A stretch of DNA of 64,000 nt from the IMG/VR virus record IMGVR_UViG_3300017991_000052. One strand, given 5' to 3'. The notes beneath the pieces are model-generated. The model saw nothing but the letters and a program-made list of their open reading frames with translations, was not told the DNA's origin and did no database searches. The stretch comes from a virus. Made by a program: the position numbers and the translations under genes. This document shows, in pieces, positions 43,469 through 64,000 of the stretch (positions are counted from its first letter, which is position 1; every line of letters starts with the position of its first letter).

Positions 43469-43927
43469 ATGCGGGTTATGGCGATAGATCCTGGCAGCAA
43501 TCAAATTGGGATTGCTGTATTTAAAGGAAAGCGTTTATTAAACAGTGGAACATTTGAAGTTATTAAAACAGATTTGGCTTACTCAAAGTTATTATACATT
43601 CATAACCTTATTAAAAGTGCTCTATCTATCCACTATCCTGATATTATAATTATTGAATCATTAAAAAGTATGAGAAATGCTAAAACAACAAGAATTTTAT
43701 CAGAAATTATAGGAGCAATTAAACTTACAATAATATTAGATAATAAAGTGTACGATGAGGTTCATCCTAAAACAATGAAAAAAGTTATTACTGGTAATGG
43801 AAATGCGGATAAAGAAATGGTAAAAAAAGTTATTATAAAAAAATTTAAAAAGAAAAAAGATATTAGTTATGATGAATCTGATGCAATAGGACTTGGATAT
43901 ACTTATATAATTAATAATGACAATTGA
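43469..43927 (+). CDS. ruvC: Holliday junction resolvase RuvC
   Basis: IDPG...G, IIE, P...KK..TGNGNADK..V, DESDA. Confidence 0.9.
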   Translation: MRVMAIDPGSNQIGIAVFKGKRLLNSGTFEVIKTDLAYSKLLYIHNLIKSALSIHYPDIIIIESLKSMRNAKTTRILSEIIGAIKLTIILDNKVYDEVHPKTMKKVITGNGNADKEMVKKVIIKKFKKKKDISYDESDAIGLGYTYIINNDN

Positions 43928-45724
43928 TATTAATATTAAATGTGATGAATGTAATGAAACTTTAGAAAATGATGACAAGGTTTTTTGTTATAAATGTTTT
44001 AAAGAATATGCAGAAAAAATAGAAGAATTAGAAGAACAAGTAGAAGAGTTAGAAAAAGAAGTTGCTCAAGTAAGATCAGAAGTTGAAGATGAAGAATATG
44101 AAAAATATCAATTGCAAGAAGAATATGAAAAATTAGAATCAAAATATGAAGAATTAACAATTGATTATGGACAATTAGAAAGAAGTTTAGAAAAAACGCA
44201 AATAGTAGATGAAAGTGTATAAGGTGAAAATATGAGAGAAATATCTGAAGTAGATAGTTTTTTACAAACAATGGGACCTGGAAAATCAAGAATTCCAGTA
44301 GTATATCCAGCTAGATCATCATCCGTAATTATTGAGGATGGGATAAAAACAGATTTAACAAGAAAAATGAGATATGAACGCGGGAGAGATGTTATTTTTA
44401 AATGTCTTGATTGTAATGATATTATAGGTCAAGGAAAAGAAACTACAGATAATAGAGATCAAGTAAAAATATATTGTTTTAAGTGTAGGAATTATCATAT
44501 AGCAAATGGAGCTCTAATATGGAATCAAAATCCTTTATGGCATAAACCAGAAGAAGGAAAACAAAGACAAGATTATGAAAAATTAATGGAAGAATATATT
44601 AAAAATAATAAGCCAAAGGTGGTTGGTATATAATGGGATGTTTTGATACATTACTTTTTACATGCCCTAAATGTGGGAAAAAAGATGCTATATATGAACA
44701 ATTAAAACCAGATATTTATGGGATGGAAACATTTAGAGATAAAGAAATACCAGATCCACTTATTTTAATGTGCAAAGATGATGAATTTGTATGTTCTGAA
44801 TGCAGTACATGGTTTAGATTAAAAGTAAAAAGTAAAATTGAATGGAAATTAGTTAAGATGAGAAATCAAAATGGATAATGCTGTGCAACCATGGATTGCA
44901 TTAATATATATAGTACCAGCATTAATTTTATGTGGAGCATTAGCATTCTTTATTATGAAGATGATAAAACCTTTTACTAAATTTCTTGAAGAAAGGGGGA
45001 AGAGCCACGACATTGTGACCCCACCAATATTTCCACAAGGCCTTGTATGGCCATTTCAGCAACCAAACTCTTCCCCTCAAGAAATAAAAAAAACAAAAGA
45101 AGAAATAGAAAAAGAAGAATTACAAAAATTTGAAGAACGTAAAGCACAATTTATAGCTCCAAATATAAAAAAGAAAGTAAAAGTTAATTTTGATAATTTG
45201 GGAGAAAAAATTGTTAGTAGCAGTAAAGATGTAAATAAAGCAGTAAAATACTTAAAAAAAAAGAAAGGTGAAAAGTAATGAGAAAAGAAATAACAAAAGG
45301 ATTTGAACAATTAAGAAATATTGTTTTAGAGTCTTCTTTTGATCAAAAAAGCGACTTGGCTGATGATATAACTGATTTAGAATTTAAATTATTAGATATA
45401 GCTAAAAAATATCGTGATGATATACGCGATAAAGTAATGTCTATTAGAGAATCTTATCGTCCAATTAGAAGCCAAGTTGAAACTATTTCAAGAGCTTGTG
45501 ATAAAGCTGAAAAATGTATTAGGGATTGATTATGAATGATAAAAACATATTGGATTAATTGTAAACATTTTTGTTGTAGTGCCGATGTTGAAAATGGTAT
45601 AGTAATAGATTCTGCTCCAATTATTAAATGGGGTAAAGGGAAAAAAGTAATGGATGTTATAGATTTTTATAGAAAAAAGGGATCGTTAATAAATTATACA
45701 ATTTTAGAGGGAGAATATGAGTAG
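43917..45724 (+). other. Run of six small hypothetical genes (Zn-finger, coiled-coil, membrane)
   Basis: ORFs 43917-44222, 44232-44633, 44633-44878, 44871-45278, 45278-45529, 45536-45724, several translationally coupled. Confidence 0.6.
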
Positions 45725-48922: not shown

Positions 48923-49490
48923 AAAAGAAATAGCTTTTATTTATAATTCTAATAAAATAGAACAGATTATGTATCCCCTTAAGGAATATTCTAAAGATCC
49001 AGATAAATCAGATCCTCATGTTGGGGGGCATATAAAAGCATTTTTATATATGAAAGAGAATTGTAAAAAAGATTTAACTGAAAAAGATATTCTTATAATG
49101 CATAGGCTTTTAACAAAGGATATTTTACGTCCAAAAGACAGCGGTGCATATAGAACTTGTGCTGTTTATATTAGCGGCAGACAAGCTCCTATGTATTATT
49201 CTGTAAAACCAATGATGGAAACTTTAATAGAATTTGCAAAAAGAGTTGGTTATGAGAATGATATATGGAATGTACATCATGAATTTGAAATTATTCATCC
49301 ATTTGTTGATGGGAATGGTAGAACTGGCCGTTTAATTCTTAATTGGCTTAGATTTAAAAATGATCTTCCATTAGAAATTGTTCTATATAAAGATAGAATG
49401 GAATACTATACATCTATTGAAAAATATAGAATAGGTAAAATAGTAAGTAAAAAATTGGGGGAATTGAATGGAGATAAGGCATTATATTGA
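48909..49490 (+). CDS. Fic family protein (AMP transferase)
   Basis: Canonical HPFVDGNGRTGR motif; SNKIE. Confidence 0.92.
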   Translation: MKLNKKEIAFIYNSNKIEQIMYPLKEYSKDPDKSDPHVGGHIKAFLYMKENCKKDLTEKDILIMHRLLTKDILRPKDSGAYRTCAVYISGRQAPMYYSVKPMMETLIEFAKRVGYENDIWNVHHEFEIIHPFVDGNGRTGRLILNWLRFKNDLPLEIVLYKDRMEYYTSIEKYRIGKIVSKKLGELNGDKALY

Positions 49491-50842
49491 TGATATAGAT
49501 GAAAAATTATTCTTTTCTAAAAAGAAAATTAAAGATGAATTTACTAGAATAGCGGCAAATTTATGGATTCAATTTGGTGTTGATTTAACAAAAAATAAAA
49601 CTGGTAAAAAATATAATGTGACAGATTTTATTTGGTCTACTAAAGCAAAAAAAAGATTTTATGAATTAAATTTTGATATAATTGATAAAATGAGAAAAAA
49701 ACAACAATATGGTTGGTTTATTTTACAAGTAGAACCAAAAGATGAAACAGCTAATGAAGCAAGAAATATATTTGAAGAAATAGAAGAAGAACAAAGAAAA
49801 TATTTAAAAAATAAAAAAAAGATAAATAAATATAAAATAACAGAAGAGAGTTTATGAAAAAAAGAATTAGAAAAGAAAAAGATGTTTTTATTCTTCTTAA
49901 TGAAGATTATGCAAAAAGCATAAAAAAAATAATCAATAAAAAAATTAGACAATCTAATAGAACCTTAAGAAGAGATAGATTTTATCATGAAGAATTAAAT
50001 GAATTAATAGATAATAGAAAGTGGTCTTGGTTAAGAGAACGAAGAGTGACTCCGGAATATGATGGAGAATCTGTTAGTAGAGCACATAGAAGAATGTATG
50101 TACATGGGATAAATGATATTTTAAAGTGGTTAACAAATCAAATAGCATCTGATAAAGATATTGATGTTATTTCAATAAAAAACGAATCATTATAAGGAGG
50201 AAAACAATGATAATTTACAATGATTATAAAGAGAATGATTTTTATGTAAATGTTGATAAAATTAAAGGAAAAAAAATAATTATCAATAATGTAAAAGCTA
50301 CTGCAAAATTAGTAGATTTTATGGATAAGAATTGTGATAAATGGTGGTATTGTGTTAAATTATATAAAGGTGAAGAAAATTTAGCTAAAGAAGTAGAATT
50401 AATTCATGATCTTGCAATTAAAAATATTGCAGTAGATGCTGAGAATTATACAGTTGAAGGACAATCATATATGGAATATTCATCTAAATTTGGGGATAAT
50501 GTAAGAAAATTATTAACTTTAGACGGAAAAGCAAAAGAATTAATATTACTTCCCGAGAATTTAGGTGGGGATAGATATAAAAATTATGATAAATTCGCAT
50601 ATGCTTTAAAACCAAAAGCAATTTTAATGGAGCGCACTTATCAACAACCTGAACCATGGAATATGTTTTATTATTATTGGTTAAATAAAATACGTTATTT
50701 CTTTTTATTTCCAATTATATATTTAGGTGTATGGCCAGAAGAAACTACAGGCGGATGGGCCGACAAGCAAATGGAAACAGCAAAATGGATTGCAGGAGAT
50801 AAAATTTTTTGGTATAGCGAAACAAAGAATATGCCTAGTTAA
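49468..50842 (+). other. Three hypothetical genes
   Basis: ORFs 49468-49857, 49854-50195, 50207-50842. Confidence 0.55.
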
Positions 50843-56368: not shown

Positions 56369-58582
56369 ATGCCCAAAAAACTTAAAGTCGTTAAAAAACA
56401 ACGAAAAACATCAGATACCACAGATTTATCTTTAAATGTCGAATCTCTTTCAGAATATGAAATGATTACCGAATGGGATAGAGAACGTGTTGTTGAAAGT
56501 TTAAAAAAGGAAGCCAATATTGGAGAAAAATTAGCAAATAAAATTGCTGATACAATTGAAGATAAATTATTAAAATTAGAAGTCAAAAAAGTAACAACAG
56601 ATTTTATTAGATCTTTGATAGATGAAGAATTATTGATAAGAGGCGAAAAGAAAAAATTATTAAAACAAAAATCTCTTTCAATACCTACTTATGATTTAGA
56701 ACAATCTCTTTTTAGTAAAACAAATGAGAATAGTAATGTTCAGGCAAATAATCCTGAAGCAGTTAATATGTTTATTGCTGAAAGCGTTTTAAAACAATAT
56801 GCTTTAAACAGAGTATTTTCACAAGAAGTATCTAATGCTCATTTAGAAGGGGAAGTACATATTCATGATCTTGGGTATATAACAAGAACATATTGTAGTT
56901 CTCATAGTTTAGAATATATAAAAAAGTATGGATTAAATCTTATTAATCTTTCAACTAAATCTGCTCCACCAAAACATGCATTAACTTTAACTGGTCATCT
57001 TAATACTTTTTTAGCAAGTATACAAGCTTATTATGCGGGAGCACTTGGGTTAGGATTTTTAAATATTTTTTATGCACCATTATTAATTGGAATGGGGATA
57101 AAAGAATTAAAACAACAAGCTCAATATTTGATTTTTAGTTGTTCACAAAATGCATTTAGTCGCGGTGGACAAACCTTATTTATTGATTTTAATATTCATT
57201 TAGGAATACCAACTACTTTAAGAAATGTTCCTGCTATTGTAAGAGAAGGTAAATATTGCAATGAGATTATAATTGAAGATGATCATTTTAATGAATATTG
57301 TAAAGATGAAAAAGGATATCGAAGAGTAATGAGAGATGAAGAATCATTTCGTCGTGATTGTTGGATTTTGACTCCCGAAAGAAGAGAATTAACTCATGAA
57401 GAGATTTTAAAATATTATGAGTTATTTCCATTAAGTTATACGCCAACTGAGACAATGGCTGATTTAATAAGACAAAAAAAATATAGAGTAAAATTATTAA
57501 CTTATGATGATTTTGAAGTTCAAGCTAGAGCTTTTGCATTAGCATTAATGAAAGTATGGCATGAAGGGGATTTTAATGGAAGTATTTTTCCATTTCCTAA
57601 ATTTGATTTACATATAAATCAAGAATGTTACGATAATCAAATTCAACGCGATGCTTTAATGTATGCATGTGAAATGGCAGCAGATAAAGGAATTCCATAT
57701 TTCTTTTTTGATAGAAGTGAAACCCAACTTGCTCAATGTTGTAGATTAAGGGAGACAGTTAATGATATGAGTATGTTAGAAATGCCTGAAAAATTAAGAT
57801 TTACTGGATTTCAAAATGTTACTATTAATTTACCTCAATGTGCTTATCGAGCAAAAGGTGATCTAAAGAAGACTATTGAAGAAATTAAATATTGTATGGA
57901 TATTGCCATGAAAGCGCATGAACAAAAAAGAAAATTTATACAAGCTTTAATGGAAGATGAACATCGACCAATGTGGCAAGTTGGTAAAATTTCATTAGAT
58001 GGTGAAAGATATGTAAATTTAGATAAAGCTACTTATATTATTGGAGTAATTGGATTAAATGAATGTGTGAAAAAAATAATAGGTAGCCAATTACATGAAT
58101 CAGATGAAGCATATAAAATGGGTATACAAATTATTTCTCATATGTATTCTTATACTAAAAATTTAGCTAAAGAATATGAAATGAAAGTTGTTTTAGAAGA
58201 ATCACCAGCTGAAAGTGCGGCTGCGAGATTGGCAAAAATTGATGTAGTTAAATATGAAGAAGCTAAAGATTATGTTAAAGGAAATCAAGAAAATGGAGAT
58301 ATATATTACTCCAATTCTGTTCATTTTGCAGCAGAAGCAGACATTGATATTTTAGAAAGAATTGAAAAACAGGGGAAATTTCATCAATTGATTGAAGCTG
58401 GGGCTATTACTCATGTTTTCTTAGGGGAACAAAGACCAACTAAAGAAGCTATTTTTAATTTAATAGAAAAAACATGGAGTAATACACAAACTGCGCAATT
58501 AACTATAAGCCCAGAATTAATTGTATGTCATGATTGTGGAAGAATAACAAGGGGATTTTCATCTGAAGACGAAGAAGAATAA
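56369..58582 (+). CDS. nrdD: Class III anaerobic ribonucleotide reductase, large fragment (ATP cone; lacks the glycyl-radical tail)
   Basis: NENSN, H..G..HIHDL, RGGQ, FPK, QCCRL, VTINLP, EESPAES, YYSNS; ends after the first CxxC. Confidence 0.9.
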   Translation: MPKKLKVVKKQRKTSDTTDLSLNVESLSEYEMITEWDRERVVESLKKEANIGEKLANKIADTIEDKLLKLEVKKVTTDFIRSLIDEELLIRGEKKKLLKQKSLSIPTYDLEQSLFSKTNENSNVQANNPEAVNMFIAESVLKQYALNRVFSQEVSNAHLEGEVHIHDLGYITRTYCSSHSLEYIKKYGLNLINLSTKSAPPKHALTLTGHLNTFLASIQAYYAGALGLGFLNIFYAPLLIGMGIKELKQQAQYLIFSCSQNAFSRGGQTLFIDFNIHLGIPTTLRNVPAIVREGKYCNEIIIEDDHFNEYCKDEKGYRRVMRDEESFRRDCWILTPERRELTHEEILKYYELFPLSYTPTETMADLIRQKKYRVKLLTYDDFEVQARAFALALMKVWHEGDFNGSIFPFPKFDLHINQECYDNQIQRDALMYACEMAADKGIPYFFFDRSETQLAQCCRLRETVNDMSMLEMPEKLRFTGFQNVTINLPQCAYRAKGDLKKTIEEIKYCMDIAMKAHEQKRKFIQALMEDEHRPMWQVGKISLDGERYVNLDKATYIIGVIGLNECVKKIIGSQLHESDEAYKMGIQIISHMYSYTKNLAKEYEMKVVLEESPAESAAARLAKIDVVKYEEAKDYVKGNQENGDIYYSNSVHFAAEADIDILERIEKQGKFHQLIEAGAITHVFLGEQRPTKEAIFNLIEKTWSNTQTAQLTISPELIVCHDCGRITRGFSSEDEEE

Positions 58583-58607
58583 AAAAAAAAATATGGGGGT
58601 GAAATAA

Positions 58608-58748
58608 ATGGTAAAATGTAAGGAATGCGGATCAACAAATGTGAGTTTATTTACAAGAATTGTAGGATATTTTAGTAATATTAAAGTTTGGAATAAGTCA
58701 AAGAAAGAAGAATTAAATGCAAGACAAAAAGGGAATTATAAGTTGTAA
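58608..58748 (+). CDS. Stand-alone NrdD C-terminal glycyl-radical domain (46 aa; not in ORF track)
   Basis: MVKCKECGSTNVSLFTRIVGYFSNIKVWNKSKKEELNARQKGNYKL; own SD GGGGGTGA. Confidence 0.88.
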   Translation: MVKCKECGSTNVSLFTRIVGYFSNIKVWNKSKKEELNARQKGNYKL

Positions 58749-60626: not shown

Positions 60627-60842
60627 ATGGCGAATGTACGTTTCTACAGACTAGGCGGAGATCCAGTTGACACAGAAATCACAGAGAAGATGACAGTTAG
60701 AGCAGCACTGAAAAAGAGTGGAATCAAGTACCAAGAAGGTGATGAAATCCGGGTACAGAACAGCAAAGTTGATTTAGACACAATGATCACTCCTGATCAG
60801 GCACAGTTTGTTACTGCGATCCCGAAAGTACGAGGAGGTTAA
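60627..60842 (+). CDS. Ubiquitin-like (beta-grasp) protein
   Basis: 71 aa, beta-grasp pattern (TV..AL...G, IRV....VD.D...I), C-terminal VRGG; strong SD AGGAGGTGA. Confidence 0.88.
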   Translation: MANVRFYRLGGDPVDTEITEKMTVRAALKKSGIKYQEGDEIRVQNSKVDLDTMITPDQAQFVTAIPKVRGG

Positions 60843-60848
60843 TGAGGG

Positions 60849-60900
60849 TAATATATTGGGGGGGGTGGAACCCTTATTAGCACACCCCCTTAATATATTA
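60849..60900 (+). promoter_or_regulatory. Long intergenic hairpin after the Ubl gene
   Basis: TAATATATTGGGGGGGGTG / CACACCCCCTTAATATATTA, stem of about 19 bp with G-U pairs. Confidence 0.7.
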
Positions 60901-60916
60901 TAAAAAGGAGAAAAAT

Positions 60917-61537
60917 ATGGCAGTAAAGTTAAGTGAAGCAAAAGAACAAGAAAAATATGTTGAAATTTGTGCAATGAGGCATAAAGTTCAAGTTAAAAAT
61001 CTTAAAGAGAAATTAAAAAAAATTGAAAAAGAAACTGCAGATGCTAGTAAGCAATTAATGCTGTTTGTCCGCGCGGAATCTGATACTAGAGAACAACTTA
61101 ACGCGCTCGAGGAAGGCTTTGAAAAACATAAAAATAGATATCAAGAAGAATTTAAAGCTTTAAAAGCTTTAGAGAATTATGAACATATTGATATAACTGA
61201 AATACATGGAAAAGCAGCTCTAATTGGTTATACAGATGAAATTCAAATTGAACATGAAGGCGATATTTATAAAATTGGTAAATTTAGAGTTACAGTTCAA
61301 GATGCACAAATTTTAATTGAAAATATAACTAATAAGAGAAATGGATGTGATCATCCTCATGTTAGAGATGGTCGACCGTGTCTTGGGGATTTAGGCTCAA
61401 CTTTACCAAAATTAATGGGTAAGCATGAATACGCTTTAGTTTTTAATGTTGTTTATAAATACTTAACAAGTTATAATAAGCAAAGTCCTTATCAAAAAAT
61501 TGAAGCTTGGACAAAAAGCAGAAAGAAGGCAAAGTAA
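60917..61537 (+). CDS. Prokaryotic E2 (UBC-like) conjugating enzyme with N-terminal coiled coil
   Basis: HPHVRDGRPCLG corresponds to UBC HPN(I/V)..G.(I)CL, with Cys155; residues 1-85 coiled coil. Confidence 0.8.
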   Translation: MAVKLSEAKEQEKYVEICAMRHKVQVKNLKEKLKKIEKETADASKQLMLFVRAESDTREQLNALEEGFEKHKNRYQEEFKALKALENYEHIDITEIHGKAALIGYTDEIQIEHEGDIYKIGKFRVTVQDAQILIENITNKRNGCDHPHVRDGRPCLGDLGSTLPKLMGKHEYALVFNVVYKYLTSYNKQSPYQKIEAWTKSRKKAK

Positions 61538-62100
61538 TGTTACAAGTTATTTTTAAAGAAAAGGCTATTAAAAAAATTGAATATTTTACCCAATTGGCTC
61601 CAGGAGAAATTTCTGGATTAGGTAAAGTAGAAAAACAAGGTGATAAATTTATTATTGAAGATGTTTACTTACTTAAACAAACAAATTCTGCAGCTTATAC
61701 AGAATTAGATTCTGAAGCAATTAATGATTTTCTTATTGATATGATGAGTAAAGGAGAAGATCTTTCTAAGATAAAGTTATGGTGGCATACTCATGCTAAT
61801 TTTTCTGTTTTTTGGAGTGGGACAGACAAAGATACAATAGATAAATTTGCAAATGAATCTTATTTTATTTCTTTAGTAACAAACAAAGCTGGAGATTATA
61901 AAATTAGATTTGATTTTCACGCACCGGATAGACTGACATTTGATGATATTCCTCATGTAGTAGATTTTACAGATGATAATGATCTAAAAAGACAATGTGA
62001 AGAAGAATTTAATCAAAAAGTTAAAACTAGATTATATTGGGATGAACAGCCGCAATATGTTGAAAATAATGAACAAGAAATTGTGGAGCATGTAGTATAG
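61537..62100 (+). CDS. JAB/MPN+/JAMM metalloprotease (deubiquitinase-like)
   Basis: E24 plus H-T-H-x7-S-G-T-D, an exact JAMM motif; TAATG coupling to E2. Confidence 0.9.
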   Translation: MLQVIFKEKAIKKIEYFTQLAPGEISGLGKVEKQGDKFIIEDVYLLKQTNSAAYTELDSEAINDFLIDMMSKGEDLSKIKLWWHTHANFSVFWSGTDKDTIDKFANESYFISLVTNKAGDYKIRFDFHAPDRLTFDDIPHVVDFTDDNDLKRQCEEEFNQKVKTRLYWDEQPQYVENNEQEIVEHVV

Positions 62101-62118
62101 CGGTAAAGGGGTTAAGCA

Positions 62119-62784
62119 ATGTCAGATGCACAAAGATTTTGGAGACAATTAGATATTGTCGATAGTGATAAATTAAATATCCCAATTACTATTATTGGAG
62201 CCGGCGCAATTGGATCATTTACTTGTTTAGCATTAGCTAAAATGGGATGTTCTAATATTACAGTATATGATATTGATAAAATTGAAGATTATAATCTACC
62301 AAATCAATTTTATAGAGAAAGTGATGTTGGTAAATTAAAAGTAAATGGGCTTTATGATCTTATAAAAGATTTTACTGGAGTTAAAATAAATATTAAAAAT
62401 GAAAAATATAAAAAACAAAATGTTGAAGGAATAGTTATATCTGCAGTTGATAATATGGAAACAAGAAAAGATTTATGGAAAAAAGTTGAATATAATCCTC
62501 AAGTAAAATTATTTGTAGATGGACGCATGGGCGCAGAAGTCATGAGAATTTATACTGTAAAACCTCATGATATAGATGAAGTAAAGATATTTGAAGATAA
62601 TTTATATACCGATAAAGAAGCTGCAGAAGAAAAATGTACAGAAAAAGCAATTATATATAATGTAACTGTAATAGGAGGTTTAATTGCTTCTAATATTAAG
62701 AAATATGTAATGGATCAAAAATATATAAAAGAAATAATATTTGATTTAAAAAATCTATATTTATTAGCGAGTGAAACAAAATAA
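62119..62784 (+). CDS. E1-like ThiF/MoeB-family activating enzyme
   Basis: R..RQ, IIGAGAIGS, D.D.IE..NL.NQ, VG..KV, AVDN..TR, DGRMG, candidate catalytic Cys173 (EKCT). Confidence 0.92.
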   Translation: MSDAQRFWRQLDIVDSDKLNIPITIIGAGAIGSFTCLALAKMGCSNITVYDIDKIEDYNLPNQFYRESDVGKLKVNGLYDLIKDFTGVKINIKNEKYKKQNVEGIVISAVDNMETRKDLWKKVEYNPQVKLFVDGRMGAEVMRIYTVKPHDIDEVKIFEDNLYTDKEAAEEKCTEKAIIYNVTVIGGLIASNIKKYVMDQKYIKEIIFDLKNLYLLASETK

Positions 62785-63118
62785 TGTTATGTCTAAAAAT
62801 AAAAAACTTGATAATGTATTACTTGAAATAGCGAAAAAAAAGGAGCTAATTGCAAAGATAAACACAATTAATTATAATAGTTTTGAGAAAGATGCTTCTA
62901 AAGTTATAGATATTCTTCCTCAATTGACTAATAATGATGATTTTAAAGTATTAAATGTGTTTAATGTTGATAAAAAAGTACAGTATAAAAAATATAGCTT
63001 ATATAAGAAATTTAATATATTTATGTATATTGAAGGATTTAAAAGGGCTTTAGAAATAATGGGTGAAACTTTTATTAGTGATGCAATAAAAGATGATTTA
63101 TATGAACAATCAATATGA
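62771..63118 (+). CDS. Hypothetical protein in the Ubl operon
   Basis: Overlaps the E1 stop; start may be GTG 62771 or ATG 62789. Confidence 0.55.
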   Translation: MKQNNVMSKNKKLDNVLLEIAKKKELIAKINTINYNSFEKDASKVIDILPQLTNNDDFKVLNVFNVDKKVQYKKYSLYKKFNIFMYIEGFKRALEIMGETFISDAIKDDLYEQSI

Positions 63119-63384
63119 GTGATTATGTAATTGGGATTTTAAGTAATGAATTAGATAAATTAAAAACAATAGCATCACGACTTGAGGGCGAATTAACAGA
63201 ACATGAAGTATATGCTAATCAAACGAGGGATAGTTTAATATTAATAAGGCAAGCTATTAAAGAAATTGAAGATGAATTAAAAGGAGAATATATAGAACTT
63301 AACGAAGGAGTATCACCGATATCGTTACTTAAAATAAGTGAAATTATAAGAAAAGAAAATAATATATCGGAGGAAAGTTTATGA
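63115..63384 (+). CDS. Small coiled-coil protein
   Basis: ATGA coupling on both sides. Confidence 0.55.
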   Translation: MSDYVIGILSNELDKLKTIASRLEGELTEHEVYANQTRDSLILIRQAIKEIEDELKGEYIELNEGVSPISLLKISEIIRKENNISEESL

Positions 63385-64000
63385 GTTTATGTCAAGAATG
63401 CGGTAGAAATGAAGCTCAATATACTGCAATTTTTAATGTTAATGGCCAAGATATTCAAAAGCCAGTATGTGAACAATGTTATAATAAACTTCAATTAAGT
63501 GTTGATGACGCCACAAAAGAAGTATATCATAAATTAAGCGAATCTACAAAATTAGTAATTTATTATGCTCGCAGACAAGCAAGAGAACGAAGACATAAAT
63601 TTGTTTTAAATGATCATTTAGTTTATGGTATAATTTTAGAGAATGGAACTGGATATTCGACATTAGAAAGTGCTGGAGCAAATGTTGACCAATTAAAAGG
63701 GCAAATTGATTGGGCTTTAAATTCAGTTACTGATCTAGTACCTAGAAATAGTGGAGAAGAGCCTCAATTATCAGATGAAATAAAAGGCACTTTAAAAAGA
63801 TCTCTTGAGATTATTAATAAAATAGAATTTCCAGAAATAGAACCTGAACACATATTATTATCTATTACAGAAGATAGAAATTCAGCAATATCTAAAAATT
63901 TAAAAAGAAATTTTAATATTGATACAATAAAACTTTTAAGAGAATTAGAATCTCAATTACCAGAGTCAGTAGATCTCGTTAAAAAATATAAAGAAAATGA
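63381..64000 (+). CDS. Clp/Hsp100-like protein N-terminus (C4 Zn finger plus two Clp-N repeats), 3' truncated; not in ORF track
   Basis: MSLCQECGRNEA...NVNGQ....VCEQCY (CX2CX22CX2C), then LSESTKLVIYYARRQA...DHLVYG and LSDEIK..LKRS...IEPEHILLSI; frame open to the window end. Confidence 0.8.
   Translation, partial: MSLCQECGRNEAQYTAIFNVNGQDIQKPVCEQCYNKLQLSVDDATKEVYHKLSESTKLVIYYARRQARERRHKFVLNDHLVYGIILENGTGYSTLESAGANVDQLKGQIDWALNSVTDLVPRNSGEEPQLSDEIKGTLKRSLEIINKIEFPEIEPEHILLSITEDRNSAISKNLKRNFNIDTIKLLRELESQLPESVDLVKKYKEN

Follow-up and report, generated by a model that had tools for sequence, protein, structure and literature searches.

The ubiquitin-like protein (Ubl) conjugation systems characterized in prokaryotes have so far been either immune systems of bacteria, namely CBASS and Bil, or Bub, whose bacterial operons have no assigned role. 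In Type II CBASS the Cap2 protein is an E2-E1 fusion that conjugates the CD-NTase and not a Ubl. In the archaeal SAMP system (SAMP1/2, UbaA and JAMM1/HvJAMM1) the modifiers double as sulfur carriers, and conjugation is not known to need an E2. Bil (BilABCD, Types I and II), which corresponds to operon classes 6d and 6c of Iyer 2006, is an anti-phage Ubl conjugation system that tags phage tail proteins; its Ubl has a conserved glycine, and in many members the JAB protease cuts off a short extension beyond that glycine. Bub (6E/DUF6527) forms serine oxyesters and uses an E1 without a catalytic cysteine together with a Ser-His peptidase. In lambda-type phages a Ubl and a JAB protein occur together (the lambda/T1 tail-assembly proteins TAPI/TAPK; Iyer 2006), and the nearest precedent in the literature for the locus described here is the isolated E1-like genes of Asgard viruses. 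In the literature found, which includes the jumbo-phage, Bil and Bub work as well as Iyer 2006 and to which subscription journals are external, no phage-borne cassette of Ubl, E2, JAB and E1 is described. Here we analyze a 64,000-nucleotide stretch (hereafter the window) of the IMG/VR virus record IMGVR_UViG_3300017991_000052, in which four plus strand open reading frames (ORFs) at 60627-62784 encode a predicted Ubl, an E2-like carrier, a JAB/JAMM metalloprotease and a minimal E1 (Table 1).

We propose, with a probability of roughly three in four, that these four genes form a complete and catalytically intact module for Ubl conjugation and deconjugation in a large phage. The identity or fold class of each part, the conservation of the catalytic residues, the linkage of the four genes and the viral setting were all computed. 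A first-pass annotation, made by a model from the letters of the window, had read the region as four consecutive co-oriented genes for a 71-residue Ubl with an RGG end, a protein with a UBC active-site pattern around Cys155, a JAMM protease with E24, H84, H86, S94 and D97, and a ThiF/E1 enzyme with GAGAIG, RQ, AVDN and Cys173 and with no rhodanese domain, and all of these features are present. The genes are closely spaced, such that 74 nt separate the Ubl from the E2, the E2 stop overlaps the ATG of the JAB gene at 61537 by 1 nt, and 18 nt precede the E1. An alternative TTG start at 61507 would extend the JAB protein from 187 to 197 residues.

The E1 is the only part of the cassette whose identity is clear from its own sequence. 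It matches Pfam ThiF over residues 21-200 with an E-value of 8.4e-20 and a score of 71.4 bits (cut-off 28.1). The GAGAIG motif occupies residues 27-32, the RQ pair is R9-Q10 and D111 lies within SAVDN; among 41 E1s, the residues G27, G29, G43, D51, N59, K74, D111, R116, R136 and C173 are invariant, and R9 is conserved. Members of this family are ~215-280 residues long, and at 221 residues the E1 of the window leaves no room for a rhodanese domain. It consists of an adenylation domain only, with no rhodanese, zinc-binding cysteine pairs or ubiquitin-fold domain (UFD). Among the best 60 of the 81 PDB matches of the family profile are the active adenylation domain of Uba1 (3e-20), Uba5, Uba6, ThiF over its full length, NAE and MoeB, with E-values for Uba1, Uba5 and ThiF of ~1e-19 to 3e-20. 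When the E1 was searched as a single sequence, its best PDB match (4.5e-6) was to entries 9egb, 9egc and 9egd, which hold 7-14 chains each of a 264-residue 'THIF-type NAD/FAD binding fold domain-containing protein'.

A fundamental question is whether the product of the second gene is an E2 at all. The protein has no match among Pfam (UQ_con and Prok-E2 included), PHROG, NCBIfam or PADLOC models, a word-indexed homolog search recovered only the protein itself, and phmmer against the PDB gave nothing useful. The family recovered by an exhaustive HMMER search has 1,285 representatives (50% identity); the E-value is below 1e-10 for 269, and the matches span the whole protein including its N-terminal helix. 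In many members the E2 domain forms the C-terminus of a longer protein of 300-830 residues, and the regions N-terminal to it match no Pfam family. Residues 146-157 of the window's protein read HPHVRDGRPCLG, and in an alignment of 59 homologs (motif consensus HPHV...G.PCLGN) the residues G121, P147, H148, C155 and G157 are invariant and H146 is nearly so. Of the curated models, UQ_con matches 1 of these 59 relatives (2.9e-5) and Prok-E2 none.

Structure prediction with AlphaFold2 (AF2) gave a predicted local distance difference test (pLDDT) score of 46 from the single sequence, which is poor, and of 95.9 with the 59-sequence alignment. The model contains a long helix (residues 7-83) followed by a beta-meander, the HPH loop, the cysteine and two helices, with a UBC-fold core at ~86-206. 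Alignment of this model to 48,161 chains with VIA-align places E2 enzymes (UbcH10, UbcH5, Ubc13, UbcH7 and Ube2S) at the head of the non-helical matches, with Z of 7.0-7.3 and root-mean-square deviations of 3.5-4.7 over 115-123 residues, which is nearly the whole UBC domain. Foldseek, a check that the first-pass annotation had proposed, returned a list composed almost entirely of E2s at weak E-values (at least 0.04). The best PDB matches of the family profile are UBE2L3 chains (E-values 0.004-0.01), aligned from the first E2 helix through HPN and the cysteine such that HPH and C155 are in register; the UBE2L3 cysteine paired with C155 is the one that we take to be the catalytic Cys86. The UBC fold proposed for the product of the gene at 60917 is supported by the AF2 model, by two structure aligners and by the profile, and we regard the predicted assignment as sound, within a divergent and uncatalogued family.

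The remaining two parts are also best resolved through their relatives. The JAB protein carries the E ... HxH(x7)S(x2)D zinc-binding and catalytic motif of JAMM/MPN+ proteases, and its five motif residues are the sole invariant columns among 37 homologs. Its profile matches Rpn11 (1.9e-11), an archaeal Rpn11-like protein, Pyrococcus JAMM1 (2.9e-10), CSN5, BRCC36 and AMSH. The window's JAB alone scores 13.1 bits against Prok-JAB, below the cut-off of 25, and 2.5e-4 against the PADLOC JAB model, and Prok-JAB is matched by 23 of the 37 relatives. The Ubl, which ends in ...KVRGG directly before its stop codon, has no significant Pfam match by itself; among 30 relatives, 6 match ThiS and 2 match SAMP2. 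A 30-member Ubl profile matches SAMP2 (2.4e-11), PF1061, MoaD (4.7e-6), ubiquitin (1e-5), SUMO2 and ThiS. By profile, the Ubl of the window is a SAMP2/ThiS-like beta-grasp protein that appears to be encoded already mature. Relatives end instead in GGN, GGIH, GGQ, Gly-Gly plus 10 residues, or a single glycine plus 1-3 residues, and such extensions beyond Gly-Gly require a processing protease, which implies trimming by the JAB.

Does this gene arrangement recur? Loci were gathered with the E2 motif back-translated into two DNA patterns, hits were confirmed with the E2 profile, and neighboring genes were called with local profiles for E1, JAB and Ubl. The scan of IMG/VR gave 61 loci, 57 of which were confirmed, many on contigs of 50-230 kb. 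In the search of viral metagenomes for the same synteny that the first-pass annotation had suggested, nearly all 57 loci keep the order (Ubl)-E2-JAB-E1, with the Ubl last in some. Since these loci were retrieved with no more than the E2 motif, chance falls far short of explaining why the whole set recurs. A scan of 185,579 cellular species genomes with one pattern returned 86 stretches, and 69 loci were confirmed among 80 of the 86. Almost all of these are metagenome-assembled genomes (MAGs) of Myxococcota, Patescibacteria, Planctomycetota and Gammaproteobacteria, with a few archaea; E2, JAB and E1 occur together within 8-kb windows at 35 of the 69 loci, the cassettes of Patescibacteria often lack the JAB, and Mb-scale contigs of Myxococcota hold several copies. 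The earlier statement that the virus carries the whole cascade stands as far as the four parts are concerned, but the case is not exceptional: it is typical of a large mobile family found in big phages and in cellular MAGs. When all flanking ORFs were clustered, no further gene proved to be conserved; beyond the four, the largest cluster covers 9 loci.

In a tree of E1s, the window groups with the viral contig L024 and the metagenomic contig L004 with a support of 98. Viral and cellular rows are intermixed in this tree, and well-supported branches force at least six switches between them. Near-identical E1s occur in MAGs of different phyla, namely Planctomycetota versus Gammaproteobacteria and Patescibacteria versus Gammaproteobacteria (pairs L124 and L137, L105 and L111, L109 and L147), so that part of the 'cellular' set probably consists of viral DNA that is mobile or was binned wrongly, or else reflects very recent transfer. 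Several variants of the cassette were also seen. Two tandem E2 genes share one JAB, E1 and Ubl at several loci (L009, L043, L048, L050, L053, L090, L093 and L117), L120 holds two complete cassettes in a row, and one viral subclade (L015, L016, L025 and about six more) has three further conserved genes directly 3' of the E1, in clusters that span 6-9 loci.

By its gene content, the carrier of the cassette is a large uncultured tailed phage. The source record is a linear IMG/VR virus entry of 152,375 bp, estimated to be ~85% complete (CheckV). It encodes a terminase large subunit (PHROG 1.8e-21; tblastn coverage of 97% to terminases of Streptomyces phages), a head protease or major head protein, a baseplate protein, tail and tail-fiber proteins, and DNA polymerase, DnaB and NrdD/NrdG, and all 62 of its 62 ORFs of at least 250 residues lie on one strand. 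These genes speak for a viral and not a chromosomal contig; a chromosomal origin is what the first-pass annotation had listed as refuting its reading. Identity of polymerase or terminase to the closest cultured phages does not exceed ~34%, and neither blastn nor tblastn of the region or of the E2 matched any cultured phage. Also in agreement with that annotation, the neighbors of the cassette are nucleotide-metabolism genes and no defense genes flank it. A scan of 60-64 kb for promoters and terminators performed no better than on shuffled sequence. One of the neighbors, the class III NrdD (737 residues), is followed 25 nt 3' by a separate 46-residue ORF with a CxxC and an RIVGY glycyl-radical motif (window 56369-58748 for the two together), so that the radical domain has seemingly been split off as its own gene.

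Several observations weigh against reading the four genes as a conjugation module. The Ubl, E2 and JAB each fall below curated Pfam and NCBIfam thresholds when taken singly, and their support comes from family profiles. For the E2, a Z of ~7 is moderate and in a range that the aligner warns can be common, the Foldseek E-values are no better than 0.04, and the third residue of the motif is His instead of the Asn of classical E2s, so that isopeptide formation may proceed differently. Neither a UFD nor any other known domain for docking an E2 is present in the E1. A profile of its C-terminal half returned no E1 from the PDB and did not map Cys173 to a known catalytic cysteine; since that half matches no solved E1, the equivalence of C173 with the catalytic cysteine is positional only. 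The Ubl family is, by profile, nearest to proteins that also serve as sulfur carriers. In a complex prediction for the E1, the Ubl and the E2 core, for which controls were not run, the best score was 0.27 against a mark of 0.32, which speaks neither for nor against the module.

Table 1 Features of the conjugation locus and the genes directly downstream.
Feature	Window coordinates	Strand	Description and basis
Ubl	60627..60842	+	71-residue predicted beta-grasp modifier; ORF with family alignment and profile
E2-like carrier	60917..61537	+	206 residues, with an N-terminal long helix or coiled coil before the UBC-fold core; family search, AF2 model, structural matches, profile
E2 active-site motif H146-P-H-V-R-D-G-R-P-C155-L-G157	61352..61387	+	59-sequence conservation
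JAB/JAMM metalloprotease	61537..62100	+	187 residues from ATG at 61537; invariant columns, profile
Minimal E1, ThiF-type adenylation domain	62119..62784	+	221 residues; Pfam ThiF, profile
Two small overlapping ORFs	62771..63384	+	115 and 89 residues; ORF calls; membership in the system uncertain
ClpC-type AAA+ unfoldase, 5' part	63381..64000	+	843 residues in whole; continues beyond the window end; Pfam

How might such a module work? The order of transfer, the thioester chemistry, the isopeptide products and the biological role are what we infer from the parts described above. The E1, acting as a mini-E1 and probably as a homodimer like ThiF and MoeB, would bind the Ubl and adenylate its C-terminal Gly71 with ATP. 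The Ubl would then be handed over as a thioester, probably via Cys173 of the E1, to Cys155 of the E2, which would attach it to a lysine on the target. The cassette loci share no gene for a separate E3. The long N-terminal helix of the E2, in whose place or ahead of which relatives have large variable domains, may serve oligomerization or target choice. In relatives the JAMM protease would trim Ubl precursors; since the Ubl of the window is already mature, the protease here would mainly remove or edit conjugates. Most likely the module serves in a conflict inside the infected cell and would tag host or rival-phage proteins, because the family has a sporadic and mobile distribution and the N-terminal regions of its E2s are hypervariable and sometimes duplicated. 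Of the roles that the first-pass annotation had put forward (takeover of the host, a decoy, exclusion of other phages), a pure decoy is unlikely; this role and that of a pseudo-enzyme were rejected because all catalytic residues are invariant.

One alternative hypothesis retains the molecular mechanism and changes its target and beneficiary, such that the cassette would be Bil-like defense cargo that the phage carries to exclude competitors, perhaps by tagging the structural proteins of those phages, and would not be directed at the host. This is possible, though less likely than not. The same family resides in cellular assemblies, including the multi-copy contigs of Myxococcota, and the switches between viral and cellular branches of the E1 tree, the hypervariable E2 N-termini and the frequent duplication of the E2 are as would be seen for arms-race specificity modules; Bil itself shares the gene order and tags phage tail proteins. 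However, close relatives at 43-65% identity keep the synteny NrdG-Ubl-E2-JAB-E1, that is, one fixed position among nucleotide-metabolism genes, and such stable synteny in this lineage suggests a built-in phage program and not recent cargo. Moreover, the Ubl and E2 match no PADLOC model, and the absence of flanking defense genes at this locus also speaks against cargo. A different proposal is that the cassette is a sulfur carrier, in which the Ubl, activated by the ThiF-like enzyme, would form a ThiS/MoaD-type thiocarboxylate for the thiolation of a cofactor, tRNA or nucleotide and the 'E2' would be unrelated. The kinship of the Ubl to ThiS, MoaD and the dual-function SAMP2 would fit, among NCBIfam models those that fit the E1 best are named for ThiF and MoeB (each scoring far under its cut-off), and the genome has another ThiF gene, MoeB-like and next to that of a CCA-adding enzyme. 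Even so, searches for rhodanese, ThiG, MoaE and Aminotran_5 (cysteine desulfurase) gave no match in the 152-kb record, which extends to the whole record what the first-pass annotation had noted for the window, yet the record is ~85% complete and host enzymes could substitute. Positive controls for these searches gave matches in 11-14 of 14 genomes. A UBC-fold protein with an invariant cysteine and a JAMM protease, which accompany the E1 and Ubl at nearly every locus, would be superfluous for sulfur transfer, and we consider a sulfur carrier very improbable.

It is also conceivable, if rather unlikely, that the Ubl marks proteins for the phage ClpC encoded three genes downstream, acting with host ClpP or alone. 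The E1, the two small ORFs and ClpC are linked by overlapping start and stop codons, but packing is tight throughout the genome, so that these overlaps carry little weight. ClpC is full length and has Clp_N and two AAA rings (Pfam Clp_N, AAA, AAA_2 and ClpB_D2-small), the nearest viral relative L024 keeps the order Ubl-E2-JAB-E1-small ORF-ClpC, and the JAB is most like Rpn11, the deubiquitinase of the proteasome lid. On the other hand, of the more than 120 loci only the window and L024 have ClpC adjoining the cassette, which indicates that it is not a general effector of the cassette family, and no ClpP was found in the 152-kb record. Under this scheme, to which we attach little credence, the phage would tag chosen host or rival proteins for its own ClpC, which would unfold or destroy them, and the Rpn11-like JAB would recycle the tag. 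If true, this would be a viral analog of ubiquitin-proteasome or Pup-Mpa targeting inside a bacterium. A conjugation module that tags host or rival proteins remains the interpretation we prefer.

The genes around ClpC, and a second locus elsewhere in the genome, have features of their own. The ORFs of 115 and 89 residues match no family and show no family-wide conservation, a comparable small ORF at their position being present in L024 only. The N-terminus of ClpC (63381-64000 onward; L002:2973-5504) has a cysteine-rich, zinc-finger-like segment with a weak match to DUF7685 before Clp_N. An acidic/polar-Ser/Thr-hydrophobic tail (...EESL, ...EQSI, ...DESV, ...EQTL) is present at the C-terminus of eight ORFs, compared with ~1.7 expected; these ORFs include those at 62789-63118, 63115-63384, 43917-44222, 49468-49857 and 49854-50195 of the window and at 142,637-142,765 of the genome. 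Three of the eight are neighbors of ClpC; in L024, the small ORF that precedes this gene ends in ...EESI. The shared tail may be a C-terminal recognition tag. The second ThiF (242 residues, MoeB-like, Pfam 5e-45) lies next to the CCA-adding enzyme, past the end of the window (L002:8923-11633; genome 145,922-148,632), and the four genes upstream of it comprise an 81-residue ORF ending in ...PPARKG and then three ORFs without a family. With this region the phage may have a further system, of an adenylation or Ubl-like kind.

What would such a module mean? A full tagging kit is here a stable part of phage genomes, and the size of the family, with its 1,285 representatives and dozens of large viral contigs, is enough for a major unexplored branch of protein tagging. 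The E1 is about as small as E1s can be, which makes the cassette a compact model system for how a minimal E1 without a UFD hands over a Ubl, how targets are chosen without an E3, and what prokaryotic viruses gain from protein tagging. Because the Ubl ends in Arg-Gly-Gly, its targets would be directly findable by standard di-Gly proteomics.

How, then, does the cassette relate to the systems already described? The first-pass annotation had cited Bil, Bub and CBASS as the known systems of this kind. Kinship to Bil in gene order and logic holds up, whereas membership in any of these systems fails on the single-domain E1, on the HPN-like motif of the E2 and on the retention of both cysteines. As in Bil, there are four separate genes in the order Ubl, E2, JAB deubiquitinase and E1, the E1 and E2 are predicted to be cysteine-based, the distribution is sporadic and mobile, and in many members the Ubl has residues after its glycine that the JAB would remove. 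In contrast, BilD is a multidomain protein in which an inactive adenylation domain accompanies the active one and a cysteine domain is inserted, compared with a single domain of 221 residues here; the Bil E2 lacks the classical His motif (having CEHH in Type II, or a His after the Cys), whereas HPH precedes the Cys here; a conserved long N-terminal helix is attached to the E2; and the carrier is a phage. PADLOC gave no match for the Ubl or E2, and no Bil chain is among the PDB matches listed for the E2, JAB and Ubl. The serine chemistry and Ser-His peptidase of Bub differ from the invariant cysteines of the E1 and E2 and the JAMM protease here, and the fused Cap2 of CBASS differs from the arrangement here, in which a JAB gene separates E2 from E1 and a Ubl has a gene of its own. 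What is shared with Bub and CBASS is a prokaryotic E1, E2 and peptidase machinery, and the E1 weakly matches CBASS E1-E2 models (6e-12, N-terminal part only).

Among cultured phages, the crAss-like crAss001 (gp76-gp79), cr106_1 and the Flavobacterium phage FpV4 (gp50-gp53) have E1-like and JAB genes side by side and in the same order. Their JAB (~420 residues) and E1 proteins are about twice as long as those of the window, and the large genes at the E2 position were not detected by the E2 family profile in these three phages. FpV4 gp53 has a Ubl-like N-terminal segment that ends in ...KSGG, followed by a long tail, and this block may tag proteins in an analogous way by means of another carrier; its ThiF is annotated as 'thiamine biosynthesis'. 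The TAPI/TAPK pair has no E1 or E2 and is located in the tail module. A tail-assembly role of this type was rejected for the present cassette, which lies among nucleotide-metabolism genes and ~50 kb from the tail-fiber genes.

The SAMP system provides the best relative of the Ubl, JAMM1 is among the best matches of the JAB, and the small ThiF/MoeB-type E1 and the Gly-Gly end are shared as well, but the present cassette additionally carries a UBC-fold protein with an invariant cysteine. With canonical UBC E2s such as UBE2L3/UbcH7, that protein shares the predicted fold and an HPx motif 9 residues before the catalytic Cys, in register; it differs in having HPH and not HPN, an N-terminal helix of ~80 residues, and, in the model, an extra beta-hairpin and shorter C-terminal helices. 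As judged from sequence, the cassette is a new, phage-carried, family-level variant of prokaryotic Ubl conjugation, set apart from Bil by published descriptions, and its parts look more like the archaeal and eukaryotic SAMP2, Rpn11 and HPN-type E2 than like those of the described bacterial systems.

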